A stretch of 64,000 bases of DNA from Promethearchaeota archaeon (GCA_004524535.1 SDNY01000001.1:37146-101145), one strand, 5' to 3'; numbered from the stretch's first letter, positions 20 through 50,455 are shown. Notes: generated by a model not told the origin, from the sequence alone. Translations and numbers: made by a program.

Positions 20-826
20 ATGGATTGGCTTAGAGATCACGGACAAGCTCATAAGTTGGATGATCAATTTGCGAAAATGAGAAAGGACCCTGCTGGAAGA
101 ATTTATATGCCAATAACTTATCATGGAGCAAAATTTGCCATAAAATGCGGTTTAACACCAAATAAAGTTTCTTATATAAATTTAATTTTATCATTTCTTA
201 TATTTTATGGGGTAATAATGGCTAGTCGGGGCCATACACTTGATTTATTTACTCAACAGCCATATTATGGTGTTTGGTTTATTCCTCTTGCTTTTTTGGC
301 TTTATTTACAGGAATTATTGATGGGATTGATGGAGCAATAGCTAGATTAACAGAAACAAAGTCTAGAGCTGGTGCTTGGTTAGATAATGTGATTGATAGA
401 ATTAGTGATATATTATTATTAGTATGTCTAGTTCCAACCAGCTTTCTCGTCTTTCCTGAATATGGACTTGACTTTACATGGATAATTTGGACGAATATTT
501 TTCTAATTTTTCTTTATGAATACATGAGATCCAGACATGAAGGTTTAGGTTTGCATGAGGCGAAACCATTTGTGGGTGAAAGAATAACTCGTTTTTTTAT
601 TATCTTTACATTTTTTCTAATTTATGGCATTTCGAGTTTCTTTATATTAATTACTAATTGGATCGATCCCTCTGCTACTAAAATCTGGGCACATTCTCAT
701 GGTGGAACAATAAAATGGAATATGCTAATTTTTCAAATCAATTTATTATTGATTATGGTCTTTTCATCAATTAAATTAGCACAATATAGTTTGAAAAACC
801 TAAAAAAATTGGATGGAATCAAATAA
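20..826 (+). CDS. CDP-alcohol phosphatidyltransferase family protein (polar-lipid head-group transferase)
   Basis: Exact family motif DGAIARLTETKSRAGAWLDNVID (D-G-x2-A-R-x8-G-x3-D-x3-D) plus several hydrophobic helices. The frame is open back to base 2, so the true 5' end may lie upstream of the window. Confidence 0.8.
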   Translation: MDWLRDHGQAHKLDDQFAKMRKDPAGRIYMPITYHGAKFAIKCGLTPNKVSYINLILSFLIFYGVIMASRGHTLDLFTQQPYYGVWFIPLAFLALFTGIIDGIDGAIARLTETKSRAGAWLDNVIDRISDILLLVCLVPTSFLVFPEYGLDFTWIIWTNIFLIFLYEYMRSRHEGLGLHEAKPFVGERITRFFIIFTFFLIYGISSFFILITNWIDPSATKIWAHSHGGTIKWNMLIFQINLLLIMVFSSIKLAQYSLKNLKKLDGIK

Positions 827-864: not shown

Positions 865-2196
865 TTGTATACCGTTATTTTAGTAATTTATTTTATTCTT
901 TTACATATCTATTTTCCACCTTTTTTATCAGCAGGAACGAAAAACGCAATTGATACCTTCATTAGTAATCCTTTAACCTATTGGTGGTTTATATTTCCAT
1001 TAATTGGACTAATCACATTATTGATCTTGATCATTTATTATGGAAGATGTTTCTTATCTTCATTTGGGCGTGGTTATCGAACTAAAAAACCCTATAATGC
1101 TAAAATAAGTATACTAATTGCATCTAAAAATGAAAAAACATTATTAGATAGAACATTAAATTCCATTCTCGCATCAGATTATCCAAAAGAAGACATTCAA
1201 ATAATTATTATTACAAGTGGTTCAACAGATGGTACCACTGATTATTCTAACAATTTTGCCAAAGAAAATAGTTCAATTGATATAGAAGTATTATCTGAGA
1301 ATCTACCTAAAAAAGGAAAACCTCCAGCATTGAATTATGGACTTAAATACGTAAAAAATGATATCGTTGTTCTTTATGATTCTGGTTGCATTTTAGAACA
1401 GAATACATTAAGAAATTTAATATCACCATTTCAAAAAGAAAAAAATAATGCAGTTATAGGGCCTGTCCTTGTTAAAAATTGGAAGATCAATAAATTAACC
1501 AGAGCGCTTTTCCTTGACTATGCTTTTTTATCTGGTGGAGGATTATTATTTGAAACGAAAAACAGATTAGGTAAATCTGCTTATTCATTCGGACGAAATT
1601 TTGCCGTAAGAACTAAACACTTAAGAAAATCTGGAGGATTTAACGAAGATTCAATGACAGAAGATCTCTATCTTTCTGTAGTTCTAAATTTAGATGGGAT
1701 TAAAATTCTATTTTCTCCTAAAGCAAAAGTCTATGAATATGTACCAAGTACTTGGGAGATCCTAAAAAAACAACGTACAAGATGGGTTGCTGGATATATT
1801 TATGATATGCCACAATTAATGGAAATGAAAAGCGAAGAAAAAGATGGCAAAAAAATTATAATCGATAGAAATATGACGATGATGCTTTTAGGAAATATAG
1901 ATGCTTGGATTCCAATATTCATTGGATTCGCAATATTTTTCTTTCTTATCGGCGAGTGGTATCTATTAAGTTGGTTTCTTTCCTGTTTAATCTTTCAATT
2001 TGGCTTTTTATTTAAAGCCGTACGAAAATATGGCGATAATCATTTTAGTATTTTGTTTTGGTGGCCAATAAGCGCTTATATTCACCTCTATATGTTTCTA
2101 CGTCAATTCAGTTTGCCAAAAGAAATCAGCTGGGATAAAACTCCAATGATTTTAGAAAAGCAAGAAGAAGAAGTTAAAGCTCTATCGACTAAATAG
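865..2196 (+). CDS. Membrane-bound family 2 glycosyltransferase, processive (cellulose/chitin-synthase-like) type
   Basis: N-terminal TM helices, then ISILIASKNE...IIIITSGSTDGT (GT-A DxD region), LYDSGC, TEDLYLS and the Q(R/Q)xRW motif as QRTRW. C-terminal TM helices follow. Apparent TTG start. Confidence 0.8.
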   Translation: MYTVILVIYFILLHIYFPPFLSAGTKNAIDTFISNPLTYWWFIFPLIGLITLLILIIYYGRCFLSSFGRGYRTKKPYNAKISILIASKNEKTLLDRTLNSILASDYPKEDIQIIIITSGSTDGTTDYSNNFAKENSSIDIEVLSENLPKKGKPPALNYGLKYVKNDIVVLYDSGCILEQNTLRNLISPFQKEKNNAVIGPVLVKNWKINKLTRALFLDYAFLSGGGLLFETKNRLGKSAYSFGRNFAVRTKHLRKSGGFNEDSMTEDLYLSVVLNLDGIKILFSPKAKVYEYVPSTWEILKKQRTRWVAGYIYDMPQLMEMKSEEKDGKKIIIDRNMTMMLLGNIDAWIPIFIGFAIFFFLIGEWYLLSWFLSCLIFQFGFLFKAVRKYGDNHFSILFWWPISAYIHLYMFLRQFSLPKEISWDKTPMILEKQEEEVKALSTK

Positions 2197-2198
2197 CC

Positions 2199-3068
2199 TT
2201 AATACATTACTTTATTATATTTCTTCTTTTTTTTGAACGACCTGTCGAAGATTGATTTTCTATTATCTTTTTTCCATTTTAAACGATTACGCCAGCGTTC
2301 AATAGCTTCCAAAGGAAATCCAAGATTCTTTTTGCGCAGAAAAAAATTAAAAAAACCAAGTAAAAGAAAAGCAATAATCACACTAAGAGCTAGTAGTACA
2401 ATATCAATTACAAAAATTTTTATATAGCTTAAGTAAAAATAAAGAAAATAAATAGAAATTAATGTATTTGATAATAATAGAATATGCATTAAGTCTGTCA
2501 TTTTATTGGTTTTAAATTTTTTTCTTTTGCTTATCCCATGAATCCCAAATTGGAAATTTATAAAAATTGTAAAAAAGGCGAATATATATAGAATTAACGA
2601 AATTTGAGAAATCAAACACGAAATTTGATAATAATACGAAAAAGGAAAAAGTGGAGTTAGATATATAAAATAACGCTCTTTATAGATGGAAAAATGATAG
2701 AGAAAAATGTTTATCATTGCAAAATCGATCGCAATAGCACAAACCGGAGCGGTTTTTGCTGGATTTGAATCAAGCACATGAAGTAAAAAAATAAAGACAT
2801 ACATAGAAAACATAGCTAAGAAAAGATTCAAGAATAAAAGAGTTGAGAATGACATTGAAAAAACAATTTCTTCTATTGATGGAATATCTGTTCTAGTAGG
2901 TAACCTAGGATCGGAAAACTTTGGGTGAAGATAAACCTCAAGAAACCAGGAAAATTCAAGAAAAATCATAAAAATTGTTAATGTCAGAAATAATTGAACC
3001 TGAAATATAAAAGCAGTCCAATTTTTTACTTTATTTTTTTTTTTAGAGCTAATATTTTCCTTTTTCAT
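2199..3068 (-). CDS. Hypothetical polytopic membrane protein with Lys-rich termini
   Basis: Long ORF with about 7 hydrophobic segments. No recognisable catalytic motif. Confidence 0.5.
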   Translation of the reverse strand: MKKENISSKKKNKVKNWTAFIFQVQLFLTLTIFMIFLEFSWFLEVYLHPKFSDPRLPTRTDIPSIEEIVFSMSFSTLLFLNLFLAMFSMYVFIFLLHVLDSNPAKTAPVCAIAIDFAMINIFLYHFSIYKERYFIYLTPLFPFSYYYQISCLISQISLILYIFAFFTIFINFQFGIHGISKRKKFKTNKMTDLMHILLLSNTLISIYFLYFYLSYIKIFVIDIVLLALSVIIAFLLLGFFNFFLRKKNLGFPLEAIERWRNRLKWKKDNRKSIFDRSFKKKKKYNKVMY

Positions 3069-3207: not shown

Positions 3208-4542
3208 ATGATTTATGACCATATTCCTGATTTTCTTTATAATCTTATATTAAATGATCAATTGCCTAAAGAATTAAGAAAAAAATATTTCGATTTCAAA
3301 TCACATCAAATTTCAGATAAGAAATTTTGTGAAGATTTACTCAAACAATTAAAATTGTCATATAACAATTGTAATTATTATCAAGAAAAACTCTGTAAGA
3401 AGTTCGATTATACGCTTCCTGAAGATTTAACCATTGGGAATTTAGAAAAAATCCCTTATATCCCGTCTAATGACTATAAAAAATCAGTAAGTCGAAATTT
3501 AGAACTGTTAAAAGCCTCCCTTGATGAAATAGTGCTATTTTCTTGTTCCTCCTCAACGACTGGCATTACTTCAATAATTCCTCGAACATTAGAAGATTTC
3601 GACCAGATCCAATATAATGCAGTTAAAACTTATTCAGAATTTTTTAATTGGAAGGAAATAAAACCAGAACCTTATAAAAGAGCAATAATCTTTAATTTTT
3701 CGCCTGACAGATTCTTTTTATCAATAATGACAAAGAAAAATTCTAAAGGATTTGAATATGTTGATAAAACTCGTTATTTCTCATCTTGTATTAATAAACC
3801 ATTTGAATATTACGCACATGTAGAATATATGATAAAAATTAATCTACTCGTATCGATACGGACATTCTTATCAACTTTATCAGTAAGAGGGGGCTTTGTT
3901 ATGGATGTAAGCAAAATGCTCAAAATAATTAAAAAAGTTCTAAAAACGGGAAAATGGGAGAAGAGAGGAGTTAATAAAATTCTTTTTAATGGAAACCCTG
4001 CTTTAATGAATTATATGTTTGAAAATCGATTATTAAGAGAGAATATTTTTTTTGACCTCGATGAAATATCTTATGTTGGATGCAGTGGTGGAGGATGGGA
4101 TGGTGTTAAAGGGGAAGTTAAGTTAGATGCAGTAAATAAAACTCGATTTATTGAAAATTATGAAAAAATCTTTAATATTAGATCTAAGAATATAAGAGAC
4201 ATTTATTCACTCGCAGAAGTGCCGACTATTTTCGGAGGGCACTGGTCTGAAAAATATCAAGATTTTCTATTCCATTGTCCCGATACTACTCGAATTATTG
4301 TAAGAGATTTAGATAAATTAGAGCCTGTCAATGAAGGTGAAGAAGGATTATTAGAAGTTATTACACCATATGGTGTTAATGGATCAATAAATCAAGCCTT
4401 ACTTGTTGATGATATTGTTGAGATAATTTCAAAAAAGAAGTGTCCAGAATGTGGATACCAGGGAGCGGTTTTTCGAATAATAGGAAGACTGGAAAATGCC
4501 CAAGGAAAATGTTGCTCCTCCTTAATAAATTGGAGCTATTAA
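3208..4542 (+). CDS. LuxE/PaaK-like adenylate-forming enzyme (acyl-protein synthetase / F390-synthetase-like, ANL superfamily)
   Basis: P-loop-like SSSTTGITS (variant of SSGTTG), GGGWDG, and a C-terminal CPECG...FRIIGRLENAQGKCCSS tail typical of LuxE-type proteins. Paralogous to 12288..13478. Confidence 0.6.
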   Translation: MIYDHIPDFLYNLILNDQLPKELRKKYFDFKSHQISDKKFCEDLLKQLKLSYNNCNYYQEKLCKKFDYTLPEDLTIGNLEKIPYIPSNDYKKSVSRNLELLKASLDEIVLFSCSSSTTGITSIIPRTLEDFDQIQYNAVKTYSEFFNWKEIKPEPYKRAIIFNFSPDRFFLSIMTKKNSKGFEYVDKTRYFSSCINKPFEYYAHVEYMIKINLLVSIRTFLSTLSVRGGFVMDVSKMLKIIKKVLKTGKWEKRGVNKILFNGNPALMNYMFENRLLRENIFFDLDEISYVGCSGGGWDGVKGEVKLDAVNKTRFIENYEKIFNIRSKNIRDIYSLAEVPTIFGGHWSEKYQDFLFHCPDTTRIIVRDLDKLEPVNEGEEGLLEVITPYGVNGSINQALLVDDIVEIISKKKCPECGYQGAVFRIIGRLENAQGKCCSSLINWSY

Positions 4543-4612
4543 GGGAGCTCTATTTTGATAAGATTAATAATAACAAAATAACTATTAAGGTTAATTAAGG
4601 AGTATATTAATA

Positions 4613-6058
4613 ATGAAAATCAATCTCATTAACGCTGCGCCTTCAAAGATTAAGGATGGTCAATTTGAGACATTATTTTATGCTTCTGCTCCTCCTTTAG
4701 GATTATTATACCTTGCTACATATTTAAAAGATAAAGGTCATAAAATCTCTATTTTAGATCAAGCAGCTGTTAATTATGAAAATAGTGATGTAATTGACTG
4801 GGTCAAAAAAGCAGATCCAGATGTAGTAGGGTTTTCAGTTATCTGCGCATCTATAGATAATACTAAAATAATCTCTAAAACATTAAAAAGTTGGAATCCA
4901 AATCTGAAAATCATTTTTGGTAATTATCTCTCAACATTCTATGCAAGAAAAATCTTAGAAAACTATGACTGGGTAGATATTTGTGTGAGAGGGGATGGTG
5001 AAATGATATTTTCAGAGCTTATTGAAAAAATCGAATTGAATAATGATTTCAATGAAGTCGATGGAATAACGTACAAGTACAATAGTAAAATTAGAGAGAA
5101 TCAGAATCGTCGATTATTAAAAAACCTTGACATATTACCGTTTCCTGATCGTAAATTGATCCCAAATATCTATAAGAATCGAATCGGTGGAATTGATGTT
5201 TCACCACGAAAATTTACTACGATGGTTTCTTCTCGAGGATGCCCTTTTGGATGTAATTTCTGCGCATGTACAGCATTTTCTCAAGGCGTTTGGAGAACTC
5301 GATCTGTAAATAATATCTTTGAAGAGATTTGTGAATTATCAAATCAAGGTTTTCAAGAAATACTTTTTGTTGATGATAATTTCACATTGAATATGAAAAG
5401 AATCGTCGAGCTATGTAATAAAATTATGAAAGAAAAACTGGATATGGTATTTGTATGTGATGGAAGAGTAAACAATAGCTCTATTAATTTACTAAGAACT
5501 ATGAAAAAAGCAAAATTTGAAATTATAATGTTTGGATTAGAAAGTAGTTCTCAAAGAATGTTAGATTTTTATAATAAAAGAATAACACCACAGATGAGCA
5601 AAACTGCTGTAAAAAATGCGCGTAAAGCGGGTTTTAAGATGATAGTTGGGTCATTTATGATTGGTGGATTTGATGAAACCTATACTGAGGCAATCAATAC
5701 TCTTAGATTTATTTCAAAACTCGATATTGATTTCCCTCATATAATTTTTACTCGAGCATTACCTGGAACTCAACTTTTTAATAGTATGATTCAAAAAAAT
5801 ATTATTGATGAAAATCAATATTGGGAAAGGGGCGTAGATTTAATTGATTTACCTGGAGCAAAAATGAAACGGGACGTAATTTTTAAAATAATAAAAGAAC
5901 AATTCCATCTAAATTTTTTCAGACCTAAATATTTAGTTAAGGCTTTATTACGAACATTAACAAGTAAATATAGACAAGAAATGTTTTCAAGTCATCTAAA
6001 TTTTCGTGATATAGATAAATTTATTAAATTAATCAATAATCCACCTGATTTATTTTAA
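4613..6058 (+). CDS. Cobalamin-binding (class B) radical SAM protein
   Basis: N-terminal B12-binding-like Rossmann region (PPLGLLYLATYLKDKGHKISILD) followed by SSRGCPFGCNFCAC (CxxxCxxC) and a FGLESSS radical-SAM core. Confidence 0.85.
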   Translation: MKINLINAAPSKIKDGQFETLFYASAPPLGLLYLATYLKDKGHKISILDQAAVNYENSDVIDWVKKADPDVVGFSVICASIDNTKIISKTLKSWNPNLKIIFGNYLSTFYARKILENYDWVDICVRGDGEMIFSELIEKIELNNDFNEVDGITYKYNSKIRENQNRRLLKNLDILPFPDRKLIPNIYKNRIGGIDVSPRKFTTMVSSRGCPFGCNFCACTAFSQGVWRTRSVNNIFEEICELSNQGFQEILFVDDNFTLNMKRIVELCNKIMKEKLDMVFVCDGRVNNSSINLLRTMKKAKFEIIMFGLESSSQRMLDFYNKRITPQMSKTAVKNARKAGFKMIVGSFMIGGFDETYTEAINTLRFISKLDIDFPHIIFTRALPGTQLFNSMIQKNIIDENQYWERGVDLIDLPGAKMKRDVIFKIIKEQFHLNFFRPKYLVKALLRTLTSKYRQEMFSSHLNFRDIDKFIKLINNPPDLF

Positions 6059-6084
6059 GGAGTAATTTATTGAGTGAGATATAA

Positions 6085-7590
6085 TTGAAAATTGCATTAA
6101 TTAATCCAAGTTTAGAGGAAAAGATCTATTCTCCGTGGCCTCCTTTAGGGATCCTTTATTTAGGAACAATATTAACAGAGAATGGGTTTACAGTTGAATT
6201 ATTAGATGCGGCAGCAAAGTTTTATGGAAAAAATGATGTATTAAACTGGATTAAACGGGTAAAACCCGATATAGTTGGTATATCCGTCTTTACAGTAGCA
6301 TTTTTACCCGTAATTAATCTAATTAAAGTAATCAAAGACTGGAATCCTTCTATAATAATCGTGCTGGGGCATTATCACCCTACTATGGAGGCAGAGAATA
6401 TACTTCGCAAATATGGGGATTATGTTGACTACTGCGTGAGAGGGGAAGGAGAATATACCTTTTTAGAATTATGTGAATTTTTAGATAAGAATATTAATAA
6501 TTTACCAAATGATATTAAGGGGCTTGCGTTTCAATATTCTAATAAGAAAATTATCTTAACTCCAGATGCTCCTTTAATAACCGATTTAGATGATCTTCCT
6601 TTTCCAGATAGAAAATTACTTGATTTTAATTATAAATGGAATTTTTCTGGATTTGAATTTTCAAAATCAAAGATTACTTCAATCATTTCTTCTCGAGGGT
6701 GTCCATTTAATTGTTCTTATTGTGCGTGTACTAAATTTGCAAAACGCCGATTTCGACCAAGAAGTCCTGAAAATATAGTAAATGAAATACTTTTAGTAGC
6801 AGATCAAGGGTATTCGCAAATAAACTTTGTTGATGATAACTTCACTTTACAACCAAAAAGAACAATAAAGATTTGTCAATTAATAAAAAAAGAGAAAATT
6901 GATATTTACTGGCATACGGATGGTCGAGTTGACCAAACTTCTCAAGATATGTTGAAACAGATGAAAAAAGCCGGATGCAAATCAATATGGTTTGGATTTG
7001 AAAGTGCAAATCAGCGGATACTGAACCTCTATAATAAAAGAACTAAAGTGTCTCAATTCTATGAAGCTATTCGTAAAACACGGAAAGCAAATATTGAATT
7101 AATTGTTGGATTATTTATGCTTGGCGCTCCCACAGAGACGATTGCTGAAGTTAAAAATACAATAAAATTTGCTGTAGATTCTGATATTGATGTTCCCTTT
7201 TTCAATGTTGTTGAGATTTTTTCAGGAACAAAATTTTGGGATGATTATAATTCTAACGGAATAATTAATCAATATGATAACGTAAAAGCTTTAGTAGGTA
7301 CAGAAATCCAAGAAGCCGAACGATGGGAAACAACAACCAGAGTGATGGATTTCCTATTATCTCCAGAAGAACGAGAAAAAATGTTAATTGAAATCCAAAA
7401 TGCATACCAAACATTTTTTTCTTTTGAGAGAAAGATGATATTTTTATGGAAGATGCTCTATAGAACAGTAAGAAGTAAATTTATGCTAAATATGGCATAT
7501 AACATTGTGAGAAATTTTAAAGAAGCTTTTGGAGCTATATCAGCATTCAGGAATTCTAAACCTCGAGGTTTTGGGACATATGATGAGTAA
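6085..7590 (+). CDS. Cobalamin-binding (class B) radical SAM protein
   Basis: PPLGILYLGTIL..GF.VELLD, then SSRGCPFNCSYCAC. The TTG start is supported by N-terminal MKIALINP homology to its neighbours. Confidence 0.85.
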   Translation: MKIALINPSLEEKIYSPWPPLGILYLGTILTENGFTVELLDAAAKFYGKNDVLNWIKRVKPDIVGISVFTVAFLPVINLIKVIKDWNPSIIIVLGHYHPTMEAENILRKYGDYVDYCVRGEGEYTFLELCEFLDKNINNLPNDIKGLAFQYSNKKIILTPDAPLITDLDDLPFPDRKLLDFNYKWNFSGFEFSKSKITSIISSRGCPFNCSYCACTKFAKRRFRPRSPENIVNEILLVADQGYSQINFVDDNFTLQPKRTIKICQLIKKEKIDIYWHTDGRVDQTSQDMLKQMKKAGCKSIWFGFESANQRILNLYNKRTKVSQFYEAIRKTRKANIELIVGLFMLGAPTETIAEVKNTIKFAVDSDIDVPFFNVVEIFSGTKFWDDYNSNGIINQYDNVKALVGTEIQEAERWETTTRVMDFLLSPEEREKMLIEIQNAYQTFFSFERKMIFLWKMLYRTVRSKFMLNMAYNIVRNFKEAFGAISAFRNSKPRGFGTYDE

Positions 7591-7648
7591 AAGTATTGCA
7601 TTTCATTATTAGAGATTATAATAGAAAACTTAATAATAATAAAAAAAA

Positions 7649-9088
7649 ATGAAGATTGCTTTAATTTTTCCAGTTCCAATGGATCTGCAACGAGAAGATC
7701 CAAGGCCTATGTTTTCAAGTTTTGCTGAACCTCTAGGATTATTATATATCGCGGGGGTTTTAATGGAGCATGGATATGATGTATCGATTTTAGATCATGG
7801 AGCAACAAATTATACTTTCGAAGATGTATTAAATTGGATAAAAAAACAGAATCCGGATATTCTAGGTATTTCTGTTCTAACAAGATCTTTTCAATCTGGA
7901 ATAACAATAGCGAAGTTAGCAAAAGATTGGAATCCAAGTCTTACTATAATTTTAGGTAATTATCAAACTGTCTGCGCTGAAAAGATATTAAATAAGTATA
8001 ATTTCATAGATTTTTGTGTTCGAGGTGAAGGTGAATACACAATGCAAGAATTATTACCTTTGATTCGAAAAAATAACACCGATTACGAGAGTATTAAAGG
8101 AATCTATTATAGAAAAAATGGAATTGTCAAATCAACTATGCCTCGTGTATTAGAAAAGGATCTTGATAGGTTTCCAATTCCAGACCGTACATTAATTAAG
8201 GGAGCTAGATACAAGATGTCTATGGGAGGATTAGAGCTTTCTAAAGCAAAATCGGGAACTATTATGATGAGCCGAGGATGTCCTTATCAATGCCGGTTCT
8301 GTTCAGTTAATCATGAGAGTTGGCGACATAGATCAGCTGATAATGTTATTCAAGAATTACATCTCTTGGAATCTCAAGGATATCGAGAAATTATGATTAT
8401 GGATGATAATTTTACCATAAATCCCAAATGGGTAATTGAAATATGTAAAAAAATTATAAAAGAAAAAATCGATCTTATTTTTCATTGCGAAGCCAGAATT
8501 GAAGGAACTAAGGAAATGTATGAATATATGAATAGGGCTAATGTTAAGACTATTTTTTATGGAATGGAGAGTGGTAGTCAACGTGTATTAGACTATTATC
8601 AGAAAAACATAACCCCTTCTCAAAGCAAATTGGCGTTAAAAAAAGCCCGTAGCGCTGGTATTGATATGCTATTTGCTTCATTTATCATTGGGGCGCCTAT
8701 CGAAAAAATTAGTGATATACAAAAAACTGTAAATTTTGCGCTAAATTTAGATATTGATTATGCTATGTTTCACATATTTGAAGTGTTTCCTGGTATTCAA
8801 ATATGGGATGAATTAGTTGAACAAAATAAGGTGGACGAGGAAAAACACTGGGAAACTGGCGTTCGAGTAGCTGAGCTTCCATTTTATAATATCGAACTGG
8901 AATTTTTAATAGATGTAATAAGAAGAACATATAGAAAATTCTATTCAATATCAAGACCAAAATTTCTTTTCACACAATTTCTTAGGTCATTAAAAAGTCA
9001 ATATCGTCGTAATAAATTGAGAGATTTCGGTAAAGATTTTCGATCTTCCATAAGGATGTTGGATTCTTTGAGCGAAAAACGATTTTAA
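7649..9088 (+). CDS. Cobalamin-binding (class B) radical SAM protein
   Basis: EPLGLLYIAGVLMEHGYDVSILD, then MSRGCPYQCRFCSV. Third member of the tandem trio. Confidence 0.85.
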   Translation: MKIALIFPVPMDLQREDPRPMFSSFAEPLGLLYIAGVLMEHGYDVSILDHGATNYTFEDVLNWIKKQNPDILGISVLTRSFQSGITIAKLAKDWNPSLTIILGNYQTVCAEKILNKYNFIDFCVRGEGEYTMQELLPLIRKNNTDYESIKGIYYRKNGIVKSTMPRVLEKDLDRFPIPDRTLIKGARYKMSMGGLELSKAKSGTIMMSRGCPYQCRFCSVNHESWRHRSADNVIQELHLLESQGYREIMIMDDNFTINPKWVIEICKKIIKEKIDLIFHCEARIEGTKEMYEYMNRANVKTIFYGMESGSQRVLDYYQKNITPSQSKLALKKARSAGIDMLFASFIIGAPIEKISDIQKTVNFALNLDIDYAMFHIFEVFPGIQIWDELVEQNKVDEEKHWETGVRVAELPFYNIELEFLIDVIRRTYRKFYSISRPKFLFTQFLRSLKSQYRRNKLRDFGKDFRSSIRMLDSLSEKRF

Positions 9089-9093
9089 TTTTG

Positions 9094-9564
9094 TTAATAA
9101 TGAGTGATAAGTACTGTACACAGTCCTATTGCATTTAAAATAATCCCAAATATTCCAAGAACGCCTCCCTCATCTCCTGCCTTTTTAATATATCCTTTTG
9201 AAAGAATTCCTAAAGTTAATCCTCCACTATGAAGTGTTATCATCACTGTCAGAACAGTAGCTCTCCATCGATAATATTTCAGTGTCCATAAATCTGGTCT
9301 TGTAAGTAGAAATATTGGACCAATTAAAATTAAACTTAATAATCCTATAAGAAAAGATGATATTGCAAAGAGAGAATACAATGTTGAATAGAACCCTCCT
9401 TTCTTGTAAGACATCTGGTACAGTGCACTAGCTTTTGATGTATTTTGGGTGCTCTCAGGTCTTATTTGAGGAAATATAGAAGAGATTAGATTTTCTTTAC
9501 CACAGTTATGGCAAAACTTCTGATTTGGATTATTTAATTCTGTACCACAATTAGCACAATACAT
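9094..9564 (-). CDS. Zinc-ribbon membrane protein
   Basis: N-terminal MYCANCGTEL...KFCHNCG double-CxxC ribbon, then 3-4 TM helices. Paralogue of the next gene. Confidence 0.6.
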   Translation of the reverse strand: MYCANCGTELNNPNQKFCHNCGKENLISSIFPQIRPESTQNTSKASALYQMSYKKGGFYSTLYSLFAISSFLIGLLSLILIGPIFLLTRPDLWTLKYYRWRATVLTVMITLHSGGLTLGILSKGYIKKAGDEGGVLGIFGIILNAIGLCTVLITHY

Positions 9565-9675: not shown

Positions 9676-10206
9676 CTATAAAAAGAAACCTAGAACTATA
9701 AAGGCACCGCCTAAAGATATACAATTTAAAACAATGCCAAAAATTAAAAAAACACTTCCGACCTTCTCTAAGGGATTGTTAGGTTCAAGTTCTATTGCTT
9801 TTTTACTAAATACTTTTGATAAAATCCCTAATATTAATCCAACTCCATTAATTATCAGAATTACAATCCCTATTATAATTATTGTAGCAAAATCAATTCT
9901 ATAATAATTACGAGAGATTAGAGATAATATTAAATAACTCAAAACGTTTGCACCTAAAATAAAGGTGATTACTACTAAAACAATAGAAACAATTGATAAT
10001 ACAAAACATTTAATTGAATAAGGCCCTGGTCTATCTTGATTAACAACTGGTTTTTCCATGCTAATTGTTTGTTTTGGTATTGCTGCTGGTATATATCTAG
10101 CTTGTACTTGAGGTGCTCCAGAAGTTAATTTAATTCTATATCCACAGCTATAGCAGAAATTTTGATTAGAAGTTTTTATTTCTACGCCACAGTTAGGACA
10201 AAACAT
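9676..10206 (-). CDS. Zinc-ribbon membrane protein
   Basis: N-terminal MFCPNCGVEI...NFCYSCG ribbon, then TM helices. Preferred over the antisense ORF 9656..9904. Confidence 0.6.
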   Translation of the reverse strand: MFCPNCGVEIKTSNQNFCYSCGYRIKLTSGAPQVQARYIPAAIPKQTISMEKPVVNQDRPGPYSIKCFVLSIVSIVLVVITFILGANVLSYLILSLISRNYYRIDFATIIIIGIVILIINGVGLILGILSKVFSKKAIELEPNNPLEKVGSVFLIFGIVLNCISLGGAFIVLGFFL

Positions 10207-10321: not shown

Positions 10322-11416
10322 TTAAAATTTCTTATCAACTTCTTCCTTTTCTGATTCAGTTAGTTGTCGCACTACTTTAGCGGGAGAACCAAAAGCAATT
10401 GAATATGGTGGAATATCCTCAGACACAACTGAATTAGATCCAATAATCGATCCTCGACCAATGGTAACACCAGGTAATACAAGTGAATAAGCACCAATTC
10501 TTGCATTTTCACACACTTTAATAGGTCCGAAACTGAAGCTTCCATGTTTTATATGCATTGCATTATGAGTTAATAGTTTTACACCAATCCCACATCCACT
10601 ACCATCTTCAAATTCAATTAATTCAGGTAAAAGTGGATCAGGTATAGCCTTTTGAGAAATATGGCAATTTCTTCCGATTTTCATCCCTAAAAATCGAAAT
10701 AATTTGTTTCTAGCACGTGGCCACCCAGCTAAATAGGTGACAAGTAAGGAGAATAAATGATTAAATGCACCCCTTACAAACCATGAAACAGAAAAACCCC
10801 TACTCTGTAGGTATTTTGCAATGATTAACATTGGGATAGGTGTGAAGAGATATTCATCAGTTTCAATATTAACATATGTTATTTTCCCCTTAACTTCAAT
10901 TTCAAATTTAGGTCTTTTATGCTTCCAAATTTTTTTCGCTTTGTTCAAATCCTTCAAAAAGATATAGAAATCCACTATTACTATGATTAGGATTAAACTC
11001 AATACAAAATTGATAGGTAAAAAGAGCAAACATAACATTAGCCTTGTATTAAGAGCTAGATTTTTATTAAATAATATACTAAAATGGGCATAATAAATTA
11101 CAAAGAAGGTAACTACTACAAATCCTAGCAAACTGGAGACATATATTCGTGAACCAAACAATTGCTTTGATTTTGCGATGTTATATCCTAAAACATAAAA
11201 TAGAAGAAAAACTGCATAAGCAATAATAACACCCCCATATATAAACATACTATATTCATAGAAAACAAATGATAACCCAAATACTATATAAATATAAATT
11301 TCATCCATCCATGTAATTGAAAAGAATATTCGATGTATTACAAGCAGAATAACAAATATAACGTTGGAGAGTAACAATAGAAATGAAATAATAAATCCTT
11401 TCTTCATATTTTCCAA
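10322..11416 (-). CDS. Membrane-anchored hexapeptide-repeat (left-handed beta-helix) acyl/acetyltransferase
   Basis: About 160 aa of TM helices, then a C-terminal LbH region (ARIGAYSLVLPGVTIGRGSIIGSNSVVSEDIPPYSIAFGSPAKVV). Confidence 0.7.
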   Translation of the reverse strand: MENMKKGFIISFLLLLSNVIFVILLVIHRIFFSITWMDEIYIYIVFGLSFVFYEYSMFIYGGVIIAYAVFLLFYVLGYNIAKSKQLFGSRIYVSSLLGFVVVTFFVIYYAHFSILFNKNLALNTRLMLCLLFLPINFVLSLILIIVIVDFYIFLKDLNKAKKIWKHKRPKFEIEVKGKITYVNIETDEYLFTPIPMLIIAKYLQSRGFSVSWFVRGAFNHLFSLLVTYLAGWPRARNKLFRFLGMKIGRNCHISQKAIPDPLLPELIEFEDGSGCGIGVKLLTHNAMHIKHGSFSFGPIKVCENARIGAYSLVLPGVTIGRGSIIGSNSVVSEDIPPYSIAFGSPAKVVRQLTESEKEEVDKKF

Positions 11417-11494: not shown

Positions 11495-12244
11495 ATGATT
11501 AAACCTAAAATATCGGTAATAATTCCAACATACAACGAGGAGAATAATATAAAAGAGACCTTATTAGCCGTTAAAAAACAATTATGTGATTTTCCATATG
11601 AGATTATAGTCACCGATGGACAAAGCTCAGATAAAACAGTTTCTATAGCACAAAATTTTGCAAAAGTAATTATATCACCCCAAAAAGGTAAGGCATTTCA
11701 ATTAAATTATGCAACACCAAAAACATCAGGTGACTTACTACTTTTTTTAGATGCAGATACATTTATAGGACCCTTTTTTTTACAAAGAATTTACCGAATT
11801 TTTGAGAAACACAAAAATCTTTTTGCTTGTAGTGCTAGATTTAAATATTACGATGGAATTGCTCTTGCTTTTAAATTAGGTTCCAAGAGGTTCACCATTA
11901 CGAATTATTTTTTTCTTAATATCAATATGCACTTATACTATTTTTTTAAAACCTTATTTGGATATCCTGAACTTTCAGGATCTAATATAATTGTGAGAAG
12001 AGATATCTTCTTTAAAGCGGGAGGATTTAAACAAACGCCAAGTTCATTGGGGATCGATAAAGTTTTTTCAGATTCTTTATTATATCTAATTAAAAAAATG
12101 AAAGCAGGAAAAGTTAGAACACTTAATTTTGTTTCAGTATTGACAAGCGGAAGACATTTAAATGTTCGTCGTAGTTTTAAACGTATTAGTCAATATCATT
12201 CAAAAAAAGATATTTATTATAAATTAGCAAAAGAAATAGGATAA
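11495..12244 (+). CDS. Family 2 glycosyltransferase
   Basis: ISVIIPTYNEENNI...IIVTDGQSSDKT...LFLDADT (GT-A fold, DxD). Confidence 0.8.
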   Translation: MIKPKISVIIPTYNEENNIKETLLAVKKQLCDFPYEIIVTDGQSSDKTVSIAQNFAKVIISPQKGKAFQLNYATPKTSGDLLLFLDADTFIGPFFLQRIYRIFEKHKNLFACSARFKYYDGIALAFKLGSKRFTITNYFFLNINMHLYYFFKTLFGYPELSGSNIIVRRDIFFKAGGFKQTPSSLGIDKVFSDSLLYLIKKMKAGKVRTLNFVSVLTSGRHLNVRRSFKRISQYHSKKDIYYKLAKEIG

Positions 12245-12287: not shown

Positions 12288-13478
12288 CTATAATTTAAAT
12301 GCACTTGAATTAAATAAAGAACTGCAACCTTTTCCAATTGAGGGGGTTAATCGTCCCATTATTCTAAAAATAGCACCTTCTCTACCGCATTCGGGACATT
12401 TATCCCAGTTTTCTACTTGAGCAAGATCATCTAATAATACAGCTACACCGGCATAATTATCTACTCCATAGGGTGTTATTAGTTCTAAAATTCCAGTCTC
12501 TCCTGTCTTTCTTATTGACTCTAAAGTATCTTTATCACGGATTACAATTCTACCTTTGTTTTTGTCAACATGGAGTATAAAATCGTTATATTTTTTTGAC
12601 CAATGACCTCCACATGCTAATGGACTTTCAGTAGCAGCAAAATTATCACAGAATTTGTCCGGCGTAATATTGAACATATCACACATTTTTTCAATAAATT
12701 CTGGTTTTTCAACCTGATATCCAATTATAACTCGACCTTTGGTTCCATCCCAACCTCCACCTCCAGTAATAATATTAAAATGACCACTCATATCGAAGGT
12801 TCTTTTTTCTTTTTCATAATAATCACTTAAGACTCTATGCATCCATATCGGAGAATTGGCCATAATTGTTGGAATTTTATTCTTCTCTACCCGATTGAGT
12901 TCTTTTTTTAAATCTTTACCACTAATCCCAATAGCAGCTCTCATTTTACCTGTTTTAAAAAAATTCTTGAGTGTATGACCCAAAAAGAATTGTAATAAAA
13001 AGCTAACATGCTTTCCCTCCCATATATCAACAACAGCCTTATACAAAAGATATGCGTTCTTTTCATAGAATTTGTGTCTTATTGAGTTAATCATATATAA
13101 TTTTGGGGCAAACAGAATTAAATTGTTGATTTTGTCTTTGATTGAAAATGAATTAAAAACATCATTATAATTTGTTTTTAAAACTTCAAGATCGCTTTCA
13201 AGTCTACCAACAACACTAGGATCTCCTGAAGTTGAGGAAGATTCCAACCAAAAGTCCAATTTTTCGAAAGTGTTCCCTCGTAATAATTCTTTAAATTTGT
13301 CATTAGATTTTTTGAAATACACCCACGGTATATATGGTATTTCACCAAGATTAGATTCATTTAAAATCGTATTGAAATCATATTCAACTTCATTACAACG
13401 GTCCTTATATATCTTACAATCCTTTGCAGTTTCCTTTACAATATTTGATAAATCTTCATAAAATCCGTTTGAACTCAT
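12288..13478 (-). CDS. LuxE/PaaK-like adenylate-forming enzyme, second copy
   Basis: SSSTSGDPS, GGGGWDGTKG, CPECGREGAIFRIMGRLTPSIGKGCSS. Collinear with 3208..4542. Confidence 0.6.
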   Translation of the reverse strand: MSSNGFYEDLSNIVKETAKDCKIYKDRCNEVEYDFNTILNESNLGEIPYIPWVYFKKSNDKFKELLRGNTFEKLDFWLESSSTSGDPSVVGRLESDLEVLKTNYNDVFNSFSIKDKINNLILFAPKLYMINSIRHKFYEKNAYLLYKAVVDIWEGKHVSFLLQFFLGHTLKNFFKTGKMRAAIGISGKDLKKELNRVEKNKIPTIMANSPIWMHRVLSDYYEKEKRTFDMSGHFNIITGGGGWDGTKGRVIIGYQVEKPEFIEKMCDMFNITPDKFCDNFAATESPLACGGHWSKKYNDFILHVDKNKGRIVIRDKDTLESIRKTGETGILELITPYGVDNYAGVAVLLDDLAQVENWDKCPECGREGAIFRIMGRLTPSIGKGCSSLFNSSAFKL

Positions 13479-13581: not shown

Positions 13582-14301
13582 TTAAACCTTGCTATGAATC
13601 CAGTCTAATATTTCTTCAACTTGCTTTCCCTCGAAACTATGTCCTCCATCTTTAATGAGTAAGTATCGATCCTTACTTAAATTGTATTTTTCTATTAATT
13701 TTTTTCCAGTTTTTTCGAATGGTACGTATACGTCCTTCATTCCATGAATAATGAATACCTTTTTTATGATCTCGTCATTTAAATGATATTTAGGCATGAG
13801 AAGTGTTTTTCCCTTCGTGACAAACCCTATAAATTTTTTGAACCAATAAGGTGCACTTAATTGTTCCTTAATTTTGCCTAAAATCCCTTTCCCTATTGAT
13901 ACTAAAGATTGGTTTTGTTTCTTTTTTCCTTCTTCCTCCAAAAAATCTTCAATTGAATACAATGAAGACATGGCAAAAACTAAATCAACTTTTGGATTTT
14001 GTATTCCAATTGTTAAGGATGCTACGGCACCCATACTATGACCAATTAAGATTACCCGATCTGGCCCTTTGTCTCTCTCCTCCATTTTGCTGATTGCTAC
14101 ATCAATTACATATTGAATATCACGGATTTGACTTTCAAGGTCTAATTGTGAACCTTTACTTTTACCAATCCCTCTCAGATCATAAGAAAATGTCGAATAT
14201 CCGTATTTTTCCTCTAACGGCTCACAATATTTTTCCGCATCGACAGTGTTGCCCCTTGATCCTGGAGCATAAATAATTAAATCTCTACCACAACCTGCCA
14301 T
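13582..14301 (-). CDS. Alpha/beta-fold hydrolase
   Basis: Nucleophile elbow GHSMGA, a late HGMKD and GGHSF. The frame stays open 63 nt (21 codons) upstream of the first ATG and encodes a typical FFKTKDGTLLHG strand. Confidence 0.75.
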   Translation of the reverse strand: MAGCGRDLIIYAPGSRGNTVDAEKYCEPLEEKYGYSTFSYDLRGIGKSKGSQLDLESQIRDIQYVIDVAISKMEERDKGPDRVILIGHSMGAVASLTIGIQNPKVDLVFAMSSLYSIEDFLEEEGKKKQNQSLVSIGKGILGKIKEQLSAPYWFKKFIGFVTKGKTLLMPKYHLNDEIIKKVFIIHGMKDVYVPFEKTGKKLIEKYNLSKDRYLLIKDGGHSFEGKQVEEILDWIHSKV

Positions 14302-14533: not shown

Positions 14534-15571
14534 ATGAATGTAGCCATAGTTCGAGATTGGATTTTTCAAATATTCAGATTTATCATAAAAAGCAAATTCT
14601 TAAATGAAAATCCTATAAAATACGATATTCTTCGGAAATTATTGTCCTACAGGATTACTAAAACACCAATTTCAATAATGGTGGAACCTATATGCCAATG
14701 CAATTTGAAATGTCCATTATGTACGACGCCCCATAAATATATGACAAGAGAAAAAGGGATGATGAGAATGGAAACATTTCAAAAATTACTTGATGATACA
14801 TACAGATTTGTGTTGCATTATGATTTTGATTTTGCAGGAGAGCCATTTCTTCATCCTCAACTTTTCAAAATGGTTCGACTCGCTTCGGATCGAGGGGTCT
14901 TCACAATTGTTGATTCAAATGGGACTCTAATTAATGATAGAAGAATTAATGAAATATTAGATTCGCGTCTAAATGTGCTTGCTGTAAACATTGATAATGC
15001 TAATCAAAGAACTTTCGAAGAATTTCGATTAGGAGCAGATTTCAATAAAACCATAGAACAGATTAAAAGATTATGTGAGAGAAAAAAAGAAGAGAAATTA
15101 ACTTTTCCATTCATAATTGCAGAGATTATTGTTAGCCGAGAAAATGAAAGAGAACTTCAAATTATTAATAATTTGGCCTTGAATGAGATTGGAGTTGATG
15201 CTGTGTTCTATAAAAGCATCTGCTTTCCACTACATTCAGATGGTTTTAGAAGAGATAATCCCGTTCAAGAGTTGGTAGATAAATATCTTCCGATAATAGA
15301 AAAAGTAAAAAAACGTTATAATATTGTCAATGGGGAATTAAAACTCAAAAATCCAACGTTTGAATGTAATTGGCGGAAAAAATCTCTAGTCTTATGGGAT
15401 GGAAGAGTTTCAGTATGTTGTTACGATTATGATGGACAATATACTTTTGGAAACGTGAATGAAGACCACTTTCTTGATATTTGGAATTCCCCTAAATATC
15501 GATATTACCGAGAAAAACTAATTTATAATAAAAAGCTTGCACTATGTAGAAGGTGTGCTTATAGCTTTTAA
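14534..15571 (+). CDS. Radical SAM protein with a Cys-rich SPASM/twitch-like C-terminal domain
   Basis: CQCNLKCPLC (CxxxCxxC) and a GEPFLHP motif. C-terminal cysteines: CNW...VCCYDYDG...CRRCAY. Confidence 0.75.
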   Translation: MNVAIVRDWIFQIFRFIIKSKFLNENPIKYDILRKLLSYRITKTPISIMVEPICQCNLKCPLCTTPHKYMTREKGMMRMETFQKLLDDTYRFVLHYDFDFAGEPFLHPQLFKMVRLASDRGVFTIVDSNGTLINDRRINEILDSRLNVLAVNIDNANQRTFEEFRLGADFNKTIEQIKRLCERKKEEKLTFPFIIAEIIVSRENERELQIINNLALNEIGVDAVFYKSICFPLHSDGFRRDNPVQELVDKYLPIIEKVKKRYNIVNGELKLKNPTFECNWRKKSLVLWDGRVSVCCYDYDGQYTFGNVNEDHFLDIWNSPKYRYYREKLIYNKKLALCRRCAYSF

Positions 15572-17449: not shown

Positions 17450-17660
17450 TTTTTATCTAACCTTATATTGATTAAAATAGATCCATCTTTAGCTTGTATT
17501 TACACTAAACAAATTTATTTAGAGCTAATACATAGAAGCAAGATTTCTCATTAAATTATTAGATTATATAATTAAAAGTGTGTTTTAAGTGATTCTTTTA
17601 ATAAAACTTAATAAAAATGAAAATAGTTTAATTTATATCTTAAATACGGCTGCTATAGTA

Positions 17661-18413
17661 ATGAAGATTGCTCTGACTTTTGATATTGAAAGAGATATTC
17701 CCAACGTTTTAGATATGTATATCGGAGCAAAAGTTGGATTGTTGAAAATACTAGAAATATTAGAAAAATTCACAATTAAAGGGACTTTTTTTTGTACTGG
17801 AAATGTAGTTGAGAAAATACCTGAGTATATAAAATTAATAGAGCGAAAAGGTCATGAAATTGCATGTCATAGCTTTAACCATGAAAGATTAAACCATTTA
17901 AATTTTAAAAAGTGTCAAGAAATAATTTATCAGAATAAAAAGATAATTGAGAGTATCTGTCAAAAATCAAAAATTGTTGGTTTTCGAGCCCCTCATTTAA
18001 AACCTCCAAAATTTCTATTCAAAGTATTAAATAATTTAGGATTCAAATATGATTCTTCAATTAAAACCCCAAAGAAATTGATTTATTTCCAAAAAGAAAA
18101 ATATCAAATTCAAGAATTTCATCCTTCAAATCTGAACATTCTTTTTAGATTACCTATGGGTTCTTCTTTTTTAAGAAAATGGACATATCGAAATGAATTA
18201 GTTGTATTATGTTTTCATCCATGGGAAGCAATAGATGTAAAATCTTTATTTTTTAATAATAAAAACTTATTGGATATCATTAAAAATATTATTTTTAGAC
18301 CAGATCGGGTAGGAAATACAGGAGATGTGTTTATTAGCAGAATTGAAAACTTTATAGAGGAATCTCTATCCAAAGAAGCCGAATTTGTTAGTTTAAACCA
18401 ATTATTAATGTAA
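17661..18413 (+). CDS. Polysaccharide deacetylase (NodB/CE4-like)
   Basis: MKIALTFDIERD, GTFFCTG and HEIACHSFNHERL (H-x4-H-like metal site). I chose the ATG at 17661; the ORF track begins at a GTG at 17589. Confidence 0.65.
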   Translation: MKIALTFDIERDIPNVLDMYIGAKVGLLKILEILEKFTIKGTFFCTGNVVEKIPEYIKLIERKGHEIACHSFNHERLNHLNFKKCQEIIYQNKKIIESICQKSKIVGFRAPHLKPPKFLFKVLNNLGFKYDSSIKTPKKLIYFQKEKYQIQEFHPSNLNILFRLPMGSSFLRKWTYRNELVVLCFHPWEAIDVKSLFFNNKNLLDIIKNIIFRPDRVGNTGDVFISRIENFIEESLSKEAEFVSLNQLLM

Positions 18414-50323: not shown

Positions 50324-50455
50324 GGCTCATTCTCACTTTCTTTATTTCACTATTTAATGATAAAATTAATCTTTCTTTAAAAATATTGATATGAACGTCT
50401 ATAATTAATGAAATTGAAGCTTAATATATTTCTAGTTTAATTCTCTTCAGAATCA
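50324..50455 (-). repeat. Conserved inter-paralogue spacer U1 (putative promoter plus 5' UTR)
   Basis: A 132-nt spacer; a near-identical copy precedes each of the nine genes. In sense orientation it contains caatatttttaaagaaag (TATA-like) about 55 nt before the TTG. Confidence 0.6.

Follow-up and report, generated by a model that had tools for sequence, protein, structure and literature searches.

LuxE of Photobacterium phosphoreum, part of the bacterial LuxCDE fatty-acid reductase, lacks the C-terminal subdomain of ANL enzymes and carries its acyl-accepting cysteine, Cys364, on a flexible tail of about 20 residues, where it takes over the acyl group from acyl-AMP (PMC9157457). Here we describe a LuxE-type gene, LuxE-A, which opens an operon with three class-B (cobalamin-binding) radical S-adenosylmethionine (SAM) genes, rS1, rS2 and rS3. 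The operon occupies positions 3,208 to 9,088 of a 64,000-nucleotide stretch of DNA from Promethearchaeota archaeon (GCA_004524535.1 SDNY01000001.1:37146-101145), the whole of which we call the window and whose host is a Lokiarchaeial (Asgard) metagenome-assembled genome (MAG). The reading that we favour, and which we hold to have about an even chance of being right, is that these four genes form an accessory tailoring cassette in a Lokiarchaeia-specific island that builds and decorates a membrane-anchored glycoconjugate. Within this reading the glycoconjugate would be either a polar ether-lipid head group, that is a glycolipid, or a lipid-primed surface glycan.

Class-B radical SAM enzymes are familiar from archaeal lipid biosynthesis, where those characterised so far all act on the tails of glycerol dialkyl glycerol tetraethers (GDGT) or of archaeol, and homologues of two of them, Ted and Gmm, have been reported in Asgard archaea (10.1101/2025.10.20.683597, PMC11214058). 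By description, GrsA/B, Gmm, Cgm/Pgm and Ted resemble the proteins studied here in being archaeal, in combining a B12-binding with a radical SAM domain at a similar size, and in often forming multi-paralogue clusters beside lipid genes. They have not, however, been reported with LuxE-type genes, whereas the context in our island is one of head-group and sugar enzymes; cgm and pgm, for their part, are accompanied by AMP-binding genes (PF00501) that belong to catabolic pathways.

The succession of HpnI, HpnK and HpnJ, and the ring contraction performed by calditol synthase (Cds), have also been described (PMC13459092). The likeness of our island to these routes, the former leading to bacteriohopanetetrol cyclitol ether, lies in the combination of a family 2 glycosyltransferase (GT2), a de-N-acetylase and a B12-domain radical SAM enzyme, there working on a membrane lipid head group. 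They differ in using one radical SAM enzyme where the island has three to eight, and in having no counterpart to its LuxE paralogues and CDP-alcohol transferase. The iterative cobalamin radical SAM methylases CysS, TokK and ThnK, whose substrates are tethered to pantetheine or a carrier, share the class-B fold with our proteins (TM-score 0.63-0.67) and show by precedent that an acyl substrate tethered as a thioester, once loaded by an adenylating enzyme, can be methylated by a radical route. On the other hand, identity is 15-17%, the C-terminal domains are of other kinds, and in those systems one enzyme iterates where the operon has three distinct paralogues and no carrier protein, except possibly LuxE itself.

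The LuxE-type enzyme and the radical SAM paralogues

The operon consists of four genes on one strand:

3208-4542, plus strand, LuxE-A, first gene of the operon, 444 aa, LuxE family PF04443
4613-6058, plus strand, rS1, class-B radical SAM protein, 481 aa, PF02310 and PF04055, CX3CX2C
6085-7590, plus strand, rS2, class-B radical SAM protein, 501 aa, TTG start, PF02310 and PF04055
7649-9088, plus strand, rS3, class-B radical SAM protein, 479 aa, PF02310 and PF04055

Our open reading frame (ORF) calls reproduced exactly the coordinates of the first-pass annotation for these genes and the spacings of 70, 26 and 58 nt between them. The Pfam scan bore out its description of a LuxE-like gene with three B12-binding radical SAM paralogues, the first ORF matching LuxE PF04443 at 74.5 bits against a gathering score of 24.9, and each of rS1-3 matching both the B12-binding domain PF02310 (70-79 bits) and Radical_SAM PF04055 (77-104 bits). 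The shared N-terminus to which it had drawn attention is likewise present, in the forms MKINLINA, MKIALINP and MKIALIFP, as is the cluster motif (S/M)SRGCP(F/Y)xCx(F/Y)C, in which the invariant CX3CX2C cysteines are C210, C214 and C217 in rS1 numbering. The three paralogues are 39-40% identical to one another.

A single-sequence phmmer search with LuxE-A returned nothing from the PDB, even at E = 1. Among 1.84 billion cluster representatives, a profile of its family recovers only 806 sequences at E <= 1e-3, of which 60 reach E <= 1e-30. In the PDB a family profile matches LuxE of P. phosphoreum (7xc6_E) with an E-value of 4.6e-17, and PaaK ligases over their N-terminal part with values of about 1e-4 to 1e-5. 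The alignment to 7xc6_E places Cys436 on Cys364 (GkSCSS against KGCSL) and Arg427 on Arg355, and the LuxE-A chain stops 8 residues past Cys436. Across 40 relatives from three paralogue groups Cys436, Lys301, His345, His356 and Cys415 are invariant, and position 427 is always basic (Arg in 31, Lys in 9). LuxE-A thus shares with LuxE the Pfam family, an ANL N-terminal domain and nothing further of that fold, the P-loop SS(S/G)T(S/T)G, the GGGW motif, a basic residue where LuxE has Arg355, and, on a short flexible C-terminal tail, an invariant cysteine aligned to Cys364. It differs in being about 70 residues longer, with an additional invariant CxxC and two invariant histidines, and in its company: it occurs with no LuxC, LuxD or LuxAB, and its partners appear to be membrane proteins. 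For LuxC (PF05893) there was no match among the scanned island ORFs or the related loci. The score of LuxE-A against the LuxE orthology equivalog NF052244 (46.4 bits) is below the cut-off of 550.

In an AlphaFold2 model of LuxE-A (pLDDT 86.7) residues 430-444 form a disordered tail; the fold is PaaK-like, and its best structural matches are PaaK-family AMP ligases (PaaK1/2, BT_0428, ClxA) and EhpF, at a TM-score of about 0.55. The likeness to PaaK enzymes and EhpF, seen in this fold and in N-terminal sequence similarity, does not extend to the C-terminal subdomain that PaaK enzymes use to form the CoA thioester; by sequence alignment LuxE-A lacks it, the chain ending right after the GR hinge motif. 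On these sequence grounds we conclude that LuxE-A is predicted to be a LuxE-type, self-acylating acyl-protein synthetase and not a CoA ligase. The enzyme had been annotated at first as an ANL-type, LuxE/PaaK-like protein; the ANL type and the LuxE likeness stand, but a PaaK-type former of acyl-CoA it probably is not, and the LuxE type implies a covalent acyl-cysteine intermediate.

LuxE-A is 100% identical to a protein listed as hypothetical from a Promethearchaeota (Lokiarchaeial) MAG, where it lies on a 110-kb contig. We collected 137 homologues of LuxE-A, most of them 60-70% identical and named only as hypothetical proteins or LuxE/PaaK family acyltransferases. Those with a taxon name all come from Asgard MAGs, except for one locus labelled Bathyarchaeia, and neither Promethearchaeum syntrophicum nor Lokiarchaeum ossiferum is among the taxon-named matches in the listed homologue tables.

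The radical SAM genes are conserved as a triple. Orthologues of rS1 (64-85% identical) were found at 12 other loci, always upstream of rS2, those of rS2 at 13 and those of rS3 at 10, always downstream of rS2; the three always occur together and in constant order. Because each has its own orthologues, 65-85% identical and in this constant order, at 11-14 other loci, the arrangement is not a product of chance. By sequence the three, and two further paralogues in the island (rS4 and rS5), have the class-B architecture of an N-terminal B12-binding domain followed by a radical SAM core with CX3CX2C. The AlphaFold2 model of rS2 (pLDDT 91.4) has a class-B fold, for which Foldseek returned MgmA, OxsB, TsrM, AprD4, CysS and TokK at TM-scores of 0.61-0.69 and 15-19% identity, none of them standing out. 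By sequence the best PDB match of rS2 is AprD4, an aminoglycoside sugar dehydratase, and because so close a match is described as a diol dehydratase, methylase chemistry cannot be assumed for rS1-3.

Curated families were matched at a distance. For rS1-3 the best NCBIfam models were BchE and HpnJ, whose cut-offs of 481-578 lie well above the scores of 160-214 bits. BchE (TIGR02026, cut-off 481) scored 120-214 bits and was the top model for rS1-4, with 214 for rS2, and HpnJ (TIGR03471, cut-off 578) scored 148-173 bits, with 173 for rS3 and 151 for rS5. None of the radical SAM proteins, rS1 included, reaches an NCBIfam cut-off. Several homologues of the 4613-9088 genes in JGI records carry the automatic labels 'anaerobic magnesium-protoporphyrin IX monomethyl ester cyclase' or 'YgiQ'. 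The BchE labels on Asgard homologues are probably misannotations, given scores far under the cut-off and the genomic context. The closest homologues outside the Asgard archaea, from other archaea and 42-45% identical, stand alone among housekeeping genes.

Linkage and gene content of the island

The comparison covered species-representative genomes that gave an alignment to LuxE, 78 loci in all. Onto these, 22 window proteins were mapped by tblastn, and all of their ORFs were clustered; 47 of these loci hold a LuxE-A orthologue, and counts below are over the evaluable ones. A CDP-alcohol phosphatidyltransferase (CDPOH) lies upstream of LuxE-A at 35 of 40 loci and a membrane GT2 (GT2a) at 34 of 40, and these two together with LuxE-A make up the core of the island. 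The exact order LuxE-A, rS1, rS2, rS3 recurs at eight of 41 species-level loci, to which the window itself and two truncated loci can be added. Since LuxE is linked more tightly to CDPOH and GT2a than to the triple, and the triple also occurs without LuxE, we read the operon as an accessory cassette. Among the other island genes, a membrane-anchored hexapeptide acyltransferase (TMHex) is found at 23 of 37 LuxE-A loci and adjoins LuxE-B, a second LuxE-type paralogue, in three gene arrangements; a small GT2 (GT2b) accompanies it, always beside TMHex, at 21 of 37, and a polysaccharide deacetylase (PDA) is present at 17 of 37. Some B12-binding radical SAM homologue occurs at 27 of 37 LuxE-A loci, compared with 1 of 29 control loci with the unlinked paralogue LuxE-C, whose neighbourhoods are not conserved apart from their adjacency to TMx, a polytopic membrane protein.

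A homologue of the zinc-ribbon genes that border the operon in the window follows just downstream of LuxE-A whether the triple is present or absent, which argues that the triple is a cassette gained or lost at this position. In a neighbour-joining tree of LuxE-A the triple-bearing loci form basal Lokiarchaeal branches and two large derived clades are without it; as Helarchaeota too have a radical SAM gene directly after LuxE-A, this suggests that the adjacency of LuxE-A and a radical SAM gene is ancestral and was lost later. On a 1.17-Mb Loki contig LuxE, the three radical SAM genes and the zinc-ribbon gene are kept and the other neighbours differ. The Helarchaeota loci (L003, L049), where the gene directly after LuxE-A is an rS5 orthologue, also retain the hydrolase, the deacetylase, the CDP-alcohol transferase and two GT2 genes. 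The locus labelled Bathyarchaeia has LuxE, a radical SAM gene and TMHex, and a contig of 55% GC, with a LuxE 65% identical to the Ca. Sigynarchaeum protein, carries a GT2, a weak CDP-alcohol transferase match, LuxE-B, TMHex and B12-binding radical SAM genes. The first-pass annotation had proposed examining the gene neighbourhood in related genomes and comparing the radical SAM proteins with known families. As the proteins lie outside the curated families and the neighbourhood is conserved, none of the findings that it had itself named as counting against its proposal was made.

NCBI labels assign several MAGs of a single study (L008, L011, L014, L024, L025 and others) to the Thor-, Hod-, Hermod-, Heimdall- or Odinarchaeota. 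These MAGs carry LuxE-A genes 63-69% identical to the Lokiarchaeial ones in the same synteny, and their phylum labels may be unreliable.

What had been taken as a four-gene unit is in fact part of an island of at least 22 kb, which in the window runs from position 20 to about 23,100. The earlier inventory was sound for the operon genes and overlooked a second LuxE, two more B12-binding radical SAM proteins, a radical SAM/SPASM protein, two GT2 genes, CDPOH, TMHex and the deacetylase. The remaining island genes are as follows:

20-826, plus strand, CDPOH, CDP-alcohol phosphatidyltransferase, polytopic membrane protein, PF01066 at 1.2e-12, core island gene
865-2196, plus strand, GT2a, cellulose-synthase-like membrane GT2, Glyco_tranf_2_3, Glycos_transf_2, Glyco_transf_21 and Chitin_synth_2, core island gene
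2199-3068, minus strand, TMx, polytopic membrane protein with about 6 hydrophobic segments
9094-9564 and 9676-10206, minus strand, two zinc-ribbon proteins with transmembrane segments, convergent with the operon, conserved neighbours
10322-11416, minus strand, TMHex, membrane-anchored hexapeptide (left-handed beta-helix, LbH) acyltransferase, Hexapep PF00132 in the C-terminal third, four N-terminal hydrophobic segments
11495-12244, plus strand, GT2b, small soluble GT2, PF00535 at 4.6e-28, best NCBIfam TIGR04283 at 95 bits (cut-off 182)
12288-13478, minus strand, LuxE-B, LuxE-type paralogue, PF04443 at 64.5 bits, 33% identical to LuxE-A
13582-14301, minus strand, alpha/beta hydrolase, Hydrolase_4 and Abhydrolase_1
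14534-15571, plus strand, radical SAM/SPASM protein, PF04055 and PF13186, no NCBIfam cut-off reached
15584-17449, minus strand, PHP-like metallohydrolase (N-terminal CehA/McbA metallohydrolase domain) fused to a GH113-like TIM barrel (GH113 PF22612 at 4.2e-11)
17589-18413, plus strand, PDA, NodB-type polysaccharide deacetylase, probably cytoplasmic, PF01522 at 4.9e-20
18442-19902, minus strand, rS4, class-B radical SAM protein, PF02310 and PF04055, 45% identical to rS2, orthologues at L086 and L087
21103-22551, minus strand, rS5, class-B radical SAM protein, PF02310 and PF04055, best curated match HpnJ

The CDPOH signature D..DG..AR...G...D...D is intact in all 37 orthologues; its best NCBIfam is archaetidylinositol-phosphate synthase (68 bits, cut-off 180) and its best PDB matches are AF2299, DIPPS and PI synthases. 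In GT2a the QxxRW and [ST]ED motifs are conserved in 40 of 40 orthologues (QRTRW and TED in the window copy), transmembrane segments flank the glycosyltransferase domain, and the best NCBIfam is PgaC/IcaA at 1.5e-29, under its cut-off, with 6yv7 and BcsA as PDB matches. LuxE-B ends in a GKGCSS motif as in LuxE-A, and its orthologue group takes in Ca. Sigynarchaeum and Helarchaeota. NCBIfam matches of PDA include the XrtA-system deacetylase, PdaB and NodB, and its TFD[IV]E motif is found in 21 of 21 orthologues. The mechanically called PDA frame opens at a GTG; the L087 orthologue has 252 aa and no N-terminal extension, and the true start is probably, by sequence, Met26 (MKIALTFDIE), with which the apparent N-terminal hydrophobic segment drops out. 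Orthologues of rS5, 66-71% identical, lie between GT2b and PDA at L023, L030, L045 and L053. Other alpha/beta hydrolases sit inside the island at 18 sister loci.

TMx, which has no Pfam or NCBIfam match, is a candidate membrane partner of LuxE-type enzymes. Besides the window copy it has six homologues (L022, L035, L046, L060, L078, L079), all directly adjoining a LuxE-like gene of type A or C, and it has an invariant cysteine in the motif TAPxCAxAID. TMHex finds its PDB matches among LacA/Maa-type O-acetyltransferases. Hexapeptide acyltransferases use thioester donors, so an acyl-S-LuxE donor would be chemically reasonable. The top curated match of its hexapeptide domain is heptaprenylglyceryl-phosphate O-acetyltransferase, the YvoF type (72 bits, cut-off 300); YvoF, an ether-lipid O-acetyltransferase of Bacillus and Haloferax, acetylates archaeol and archaetidylglycerol (PMC9179154). 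Unlike YvoF, TMHex carries multiple transmembrane segments in an N-terminal domain of about 230 aa and is paired with a LuxE paralogue, and this pairing suggests an acyl donor other than acetyl-CoA.

Island content varies further in sister genomes, where the variable stretch holds another GT2, a sulfotransferase, UDP-galactopyranose mutase, hydrolases, radical SAM proteins without a B12 domain and U32-family proteins. Besides eight B12-binding radical SAM genes and two LuxE paralogues, the L086 island (JGI Ga0248667_100034, 1-21512) encodes a GT4 and two proteins of the Peptidase_U32 family, of which one shows a weak SCP2 match. U32 together with SCP2 is the make-up of the UbiU/UbiV/UbiT O2-independent hydroxylase system, and would hint at hydrophobic substrates.

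The window has a GC content of about 30% throughout, and tRNA and Rfam scans of it gave no matches. Outside the island it holds a sixth B12-binding radical SAM gene (35577-36848, minus strand, 423 aa). At 32297-33712 (minus strand) a protein of 471 aa combines a small GTPase domain of the Gtr1/RagA-Arf type with a weak Folliculin-like N-terminal match, a protein of the Asgard 'eukaryotic signature' type. The stretch 48998-62339 (minus strand), where the window is richest in AT (GC 0.23-0.25), holds a tandem array of ten paralogous ORFs, each of 437-455 aa; most begin with TTG or GTG, and the spacing between them is about 130 nt. The three paralogues sampled had no Pfam match.

Possible products and competing explanations

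The gene structure, domains, catalytic residues, conservation and linkage given above are observed. As to substrate, chemistry and order of steps in an accessory cassette serving a glycoconjugate island, we infer the following. From their family membership, CDPOH would install a phospho-alcohol, probably of the inositol-phosphate type, GT2a with its QxxRW motif would add a hexose or N-acetylhexosamine, and GT2b, PDA and TMHex would extend, de-N-acetylate and acylate the product. LuxE-A, to judge by its conserved residues, would convert a carboxylic acid and ATP to acyl-AMP and draw the acyl group onto its own Cys436, as LuxE does at Cys364. The acyl-Cys436 thioester would probably be passed to a membrane partner, perhaps TMx, TMHex or both, a hand-over made probable by the lack of a LuxC reductase, and the acyl group might end up bound to the lipid or glycan through an ester or amide. 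The triple would contribute three non-redundant radical steps, one per enzyme, at unactivated carbon in the product of the same pathway. The most likely chemistry would be C-methylation, with ring contraction, cyclisation or desaturation as alternatives.

A number of observations weigh against this reading. At L087 the order is CDP-alcohol transferase, GT2a, rS1, rS2, rS3 (83% identity) with no LuxE-A between, and at L086 the triple is separate from LuxE-A and not downstream of it; neither LuxE-A nor the triple is confined to loci that have the other, and the two may serve different parts of the product, or separate pathways that share the island. In the window itself GT2a and LuxE-A are not contiguous, as TMx lies between them on the other strand. 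Across species the gene content of the island varies strongly, at least 10 orthogroups of B12-binding radical SAM proteins being represented, and co-location could partly reflect a hotspot of envelope genes and not a single pathway. The fold and motifs of GT2a fit a lipid glycosyltransferase and a processive polysaccharide synthase alike. Finally, LuxE-A has no lysine at the position aligned to LuxE Lys238, which is taken by Asp298; an invariant lysine, Lys301 in GGGWDGVKG, follows 3 residues later.

The first-pass annotation had proposed that one acyl-adenylate substrate undergoes iterative methylation or C-C bond formation. In its fuller form, a linear pathway in which LuxE-A loads one acid, the three radical SAM enzymes modify the acyl group in turn as a Cys436 thioester, and the product is transferred to an acceptor, we think this unlikely. 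The tight same-strand operon, with its gaps of 26-70 nt, the recurrence of the four-gene order in eight species besides the window and two truncated loci, the radical SAM gene right after LuxE in Helarchaeota and the Bathyarchaeia-labelled locus, and the apparently ancestral adjacency all favour it; in the model, moreover, Cys436 would sit on a flexible tail suited to a swinging arm, and the solved methylases CysS and TokK bind pantetheine-tethered substrates, according to their PDB titles. But the idea presupposes that LuxE and the radical SAM enzymes depend on each other, and it is weakened because they occur independently: about 80% of LuxE-A orthologues lack the triple, which follows LuxE in only eight of 41 species, the L087 triple stands directly after GT2a with LuxE-A missing, and the L086 triple lies apart. 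We know of no class-B radical SAM enzyme acting on a LuxE-type acyl-enzyme. The independence of the triple in L087 fits with rS1-3 acting on isoprenoid tails, as do the ring synthases GrsA/B, the methylases Gmm, Cgm and Pgm and the desaturase Ted, and with LuxE-A as a mere head-group neighbour. Agreeing with this are the precedent of the archaeal-lipid enzymes, the polar-lipid-type CDP-alcohol transferase beside the operon, the U32 proteins and SCP2 lipid-binding domain in sister islands, and the full-length BchE/HpnJ match, which reaches the C-terminal helical region, both of those enzymes acting on hydrophobic substrates. The other island genes, however, are mostly sugar enzymes, the nearest non-Asgard homologues are solitary, and the triple is patchy (8 of 41), while core-lipid modifiers need no island context; tail modification strikes us as a doubtful explanation.

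A further possibility is the logic of HpnI, HpnK and HpnJ or of calditol, in which GT2 puts N-acetylglucosamine on a lipid, a deacetylase frees the amine and a B12-binding radical SAM enzyme contracts the ring to a cyclitol head group; rS5 fits this role best, and rS1-3 would perform further radical tailoring of the sugar. HpnJ is the best or second-best curated match of all five radical SAM proteins and the best for rS5, GT2b, rS5 and PDA adjoin in four Loki loci, LuxE, rS5 and PDA adjoin in Helarchaeota, and AprD4, the closest PDB sequence to rS2, works on an aminoglycoside sugar. Yet the scores reach only about 25-30% of the HpnJ cut-off, the similarity of the GT2 proteins to HpnI or HpnB is weak (1e-7), LuxE is left without a role, and PDA (PF01522) comes from a family other than that of HpnK. 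No hopanoid genes were found in the HpnJ context test, which turned up only the analogous set of GT2, deacetylase and radical SAM genes, and we regard the scheme as improbable. We would give similarly little credence to a secreted beta-glycan, partly de-N-acetylated and re-acylated, whether an exopolysaccharide like poly-N-acetylglucosamine (PNAG) of the Ica type or a lipo-oligosaccharide like a Nod factor. By the gene roles known from Nod and Ica systems, GT2a would correspond to NodC/PgaC, PDA to NodB/IcaB and TMHex to NodL, joined by a NodH-like sulfotransferase, with LuxE supplying the N-acyl group and the radical SAM enzymes tailoring acyl or sugar. The conserved QxxRW and TED motifs of GT2a (40 of 40), its best curated match to PgaC/IcaA and its match to NodC speak for this, as do the match of PDA to NodB and its want of a signal peptide, the LacA/Maa class of TMHex, and the sulfotransferase and UDP-galactopyranose mutase of sister loci. 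A CDP-alcohol phosphatidyltransferase, though, is needed in neither Nod nor PNAG systems; a homologue of NodA is missing, no components for export and no porin were identified, and a GT21/HpnI-type function of GT2a is equally compatible. That the radical SAM proteins are BchE or RiPP (ribosomally synthesised and post-translationally modified peptide) maturases would follow from BchE being the top NCBIfam for rS1-4, from the JGI names of some homologues and from the scores of the RiPP methylase models ApyD and rSAM_ocin_1, but we give this almost no weight. BchE identity is effectively refuted by scores of 175-214 bits for rS1-4, under the cut-off of 481, by the lack of other (bacterio)chlorophyll genes in the window or related loci and by the presence of 5-8 paralogues per island, which would make no sense; the RiPP reading was rejected, there being no precursor-peptide gene, protease or transporter and the neighbours being lipid and sugar enzymes. 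We also dropped the idea that a preprint on 'photosynthesis' in Heimdallarchaeota had leaned on BchE-like matches, since BchE is not mentioned in it.

Implications for Asgard membranes and surfaces

The enzyme families met here are known, and what has not been described is their combination, the absence of LuxC, and an Asgard-restricted island rich in class-B radical SAM paralogues. The literature searched contained no link between LuxE and Asgard archaea and no description of this cluster, in keeping with the initial impression that the gene combination is not a known pathway. An accessory cassette in a glycoconjugate island would be of interest in that ideas on eukaryogenesis give a central place to Asgard membranes and surfaces, with the lipid divide, contact between cells and protrusions among their themes, and almost nothing is known of lipid decoration in these archaea. 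Lokiarchaeales, Helarchaeales and a Sigynarchaeum-like lineage all retain the island. Its cobalamin radical SAM enzymes number up to eight, and its LuxE-type enzymes, two or three of them, come without LuxC; from this we predict a family of radically tailored, possibly acylated lipid head groups or glycans. The gene set, at 4 to 8 genes, is compact and amenable to heterologous expression and lipidomics, and a probable systematic 'BchE' misannotation of Asgard genomes is flagged here.

The LuxE-type enzymes would moreover provide a second biological context, outside bioluminescence, for LuxE chemistry, in which the enzyme is covalently acylated on a cysteine. A speculative extension, which we consider improbable, is that Lokiarchaeial LuxE-type enzymes are stand-alone activators doubling as acyl carriers: a carboxylic acid, possibly a fatty acid, would be held on the C-terminal cysteine, remodelled there by the three radical SAM enzymes, for example by successive C-methylation, and moved by TMx or TMHex onto the de-N-acetylated amino sugar or inositol head group of an isoprenoid ether lipid. 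If true, the archaea most closely related to eukaryotes would possess an acyl-bearing glycolipid akin to a glycosylphosphatidylinositol (GPI) anchor or to a lipo-chitooligosaccharide.

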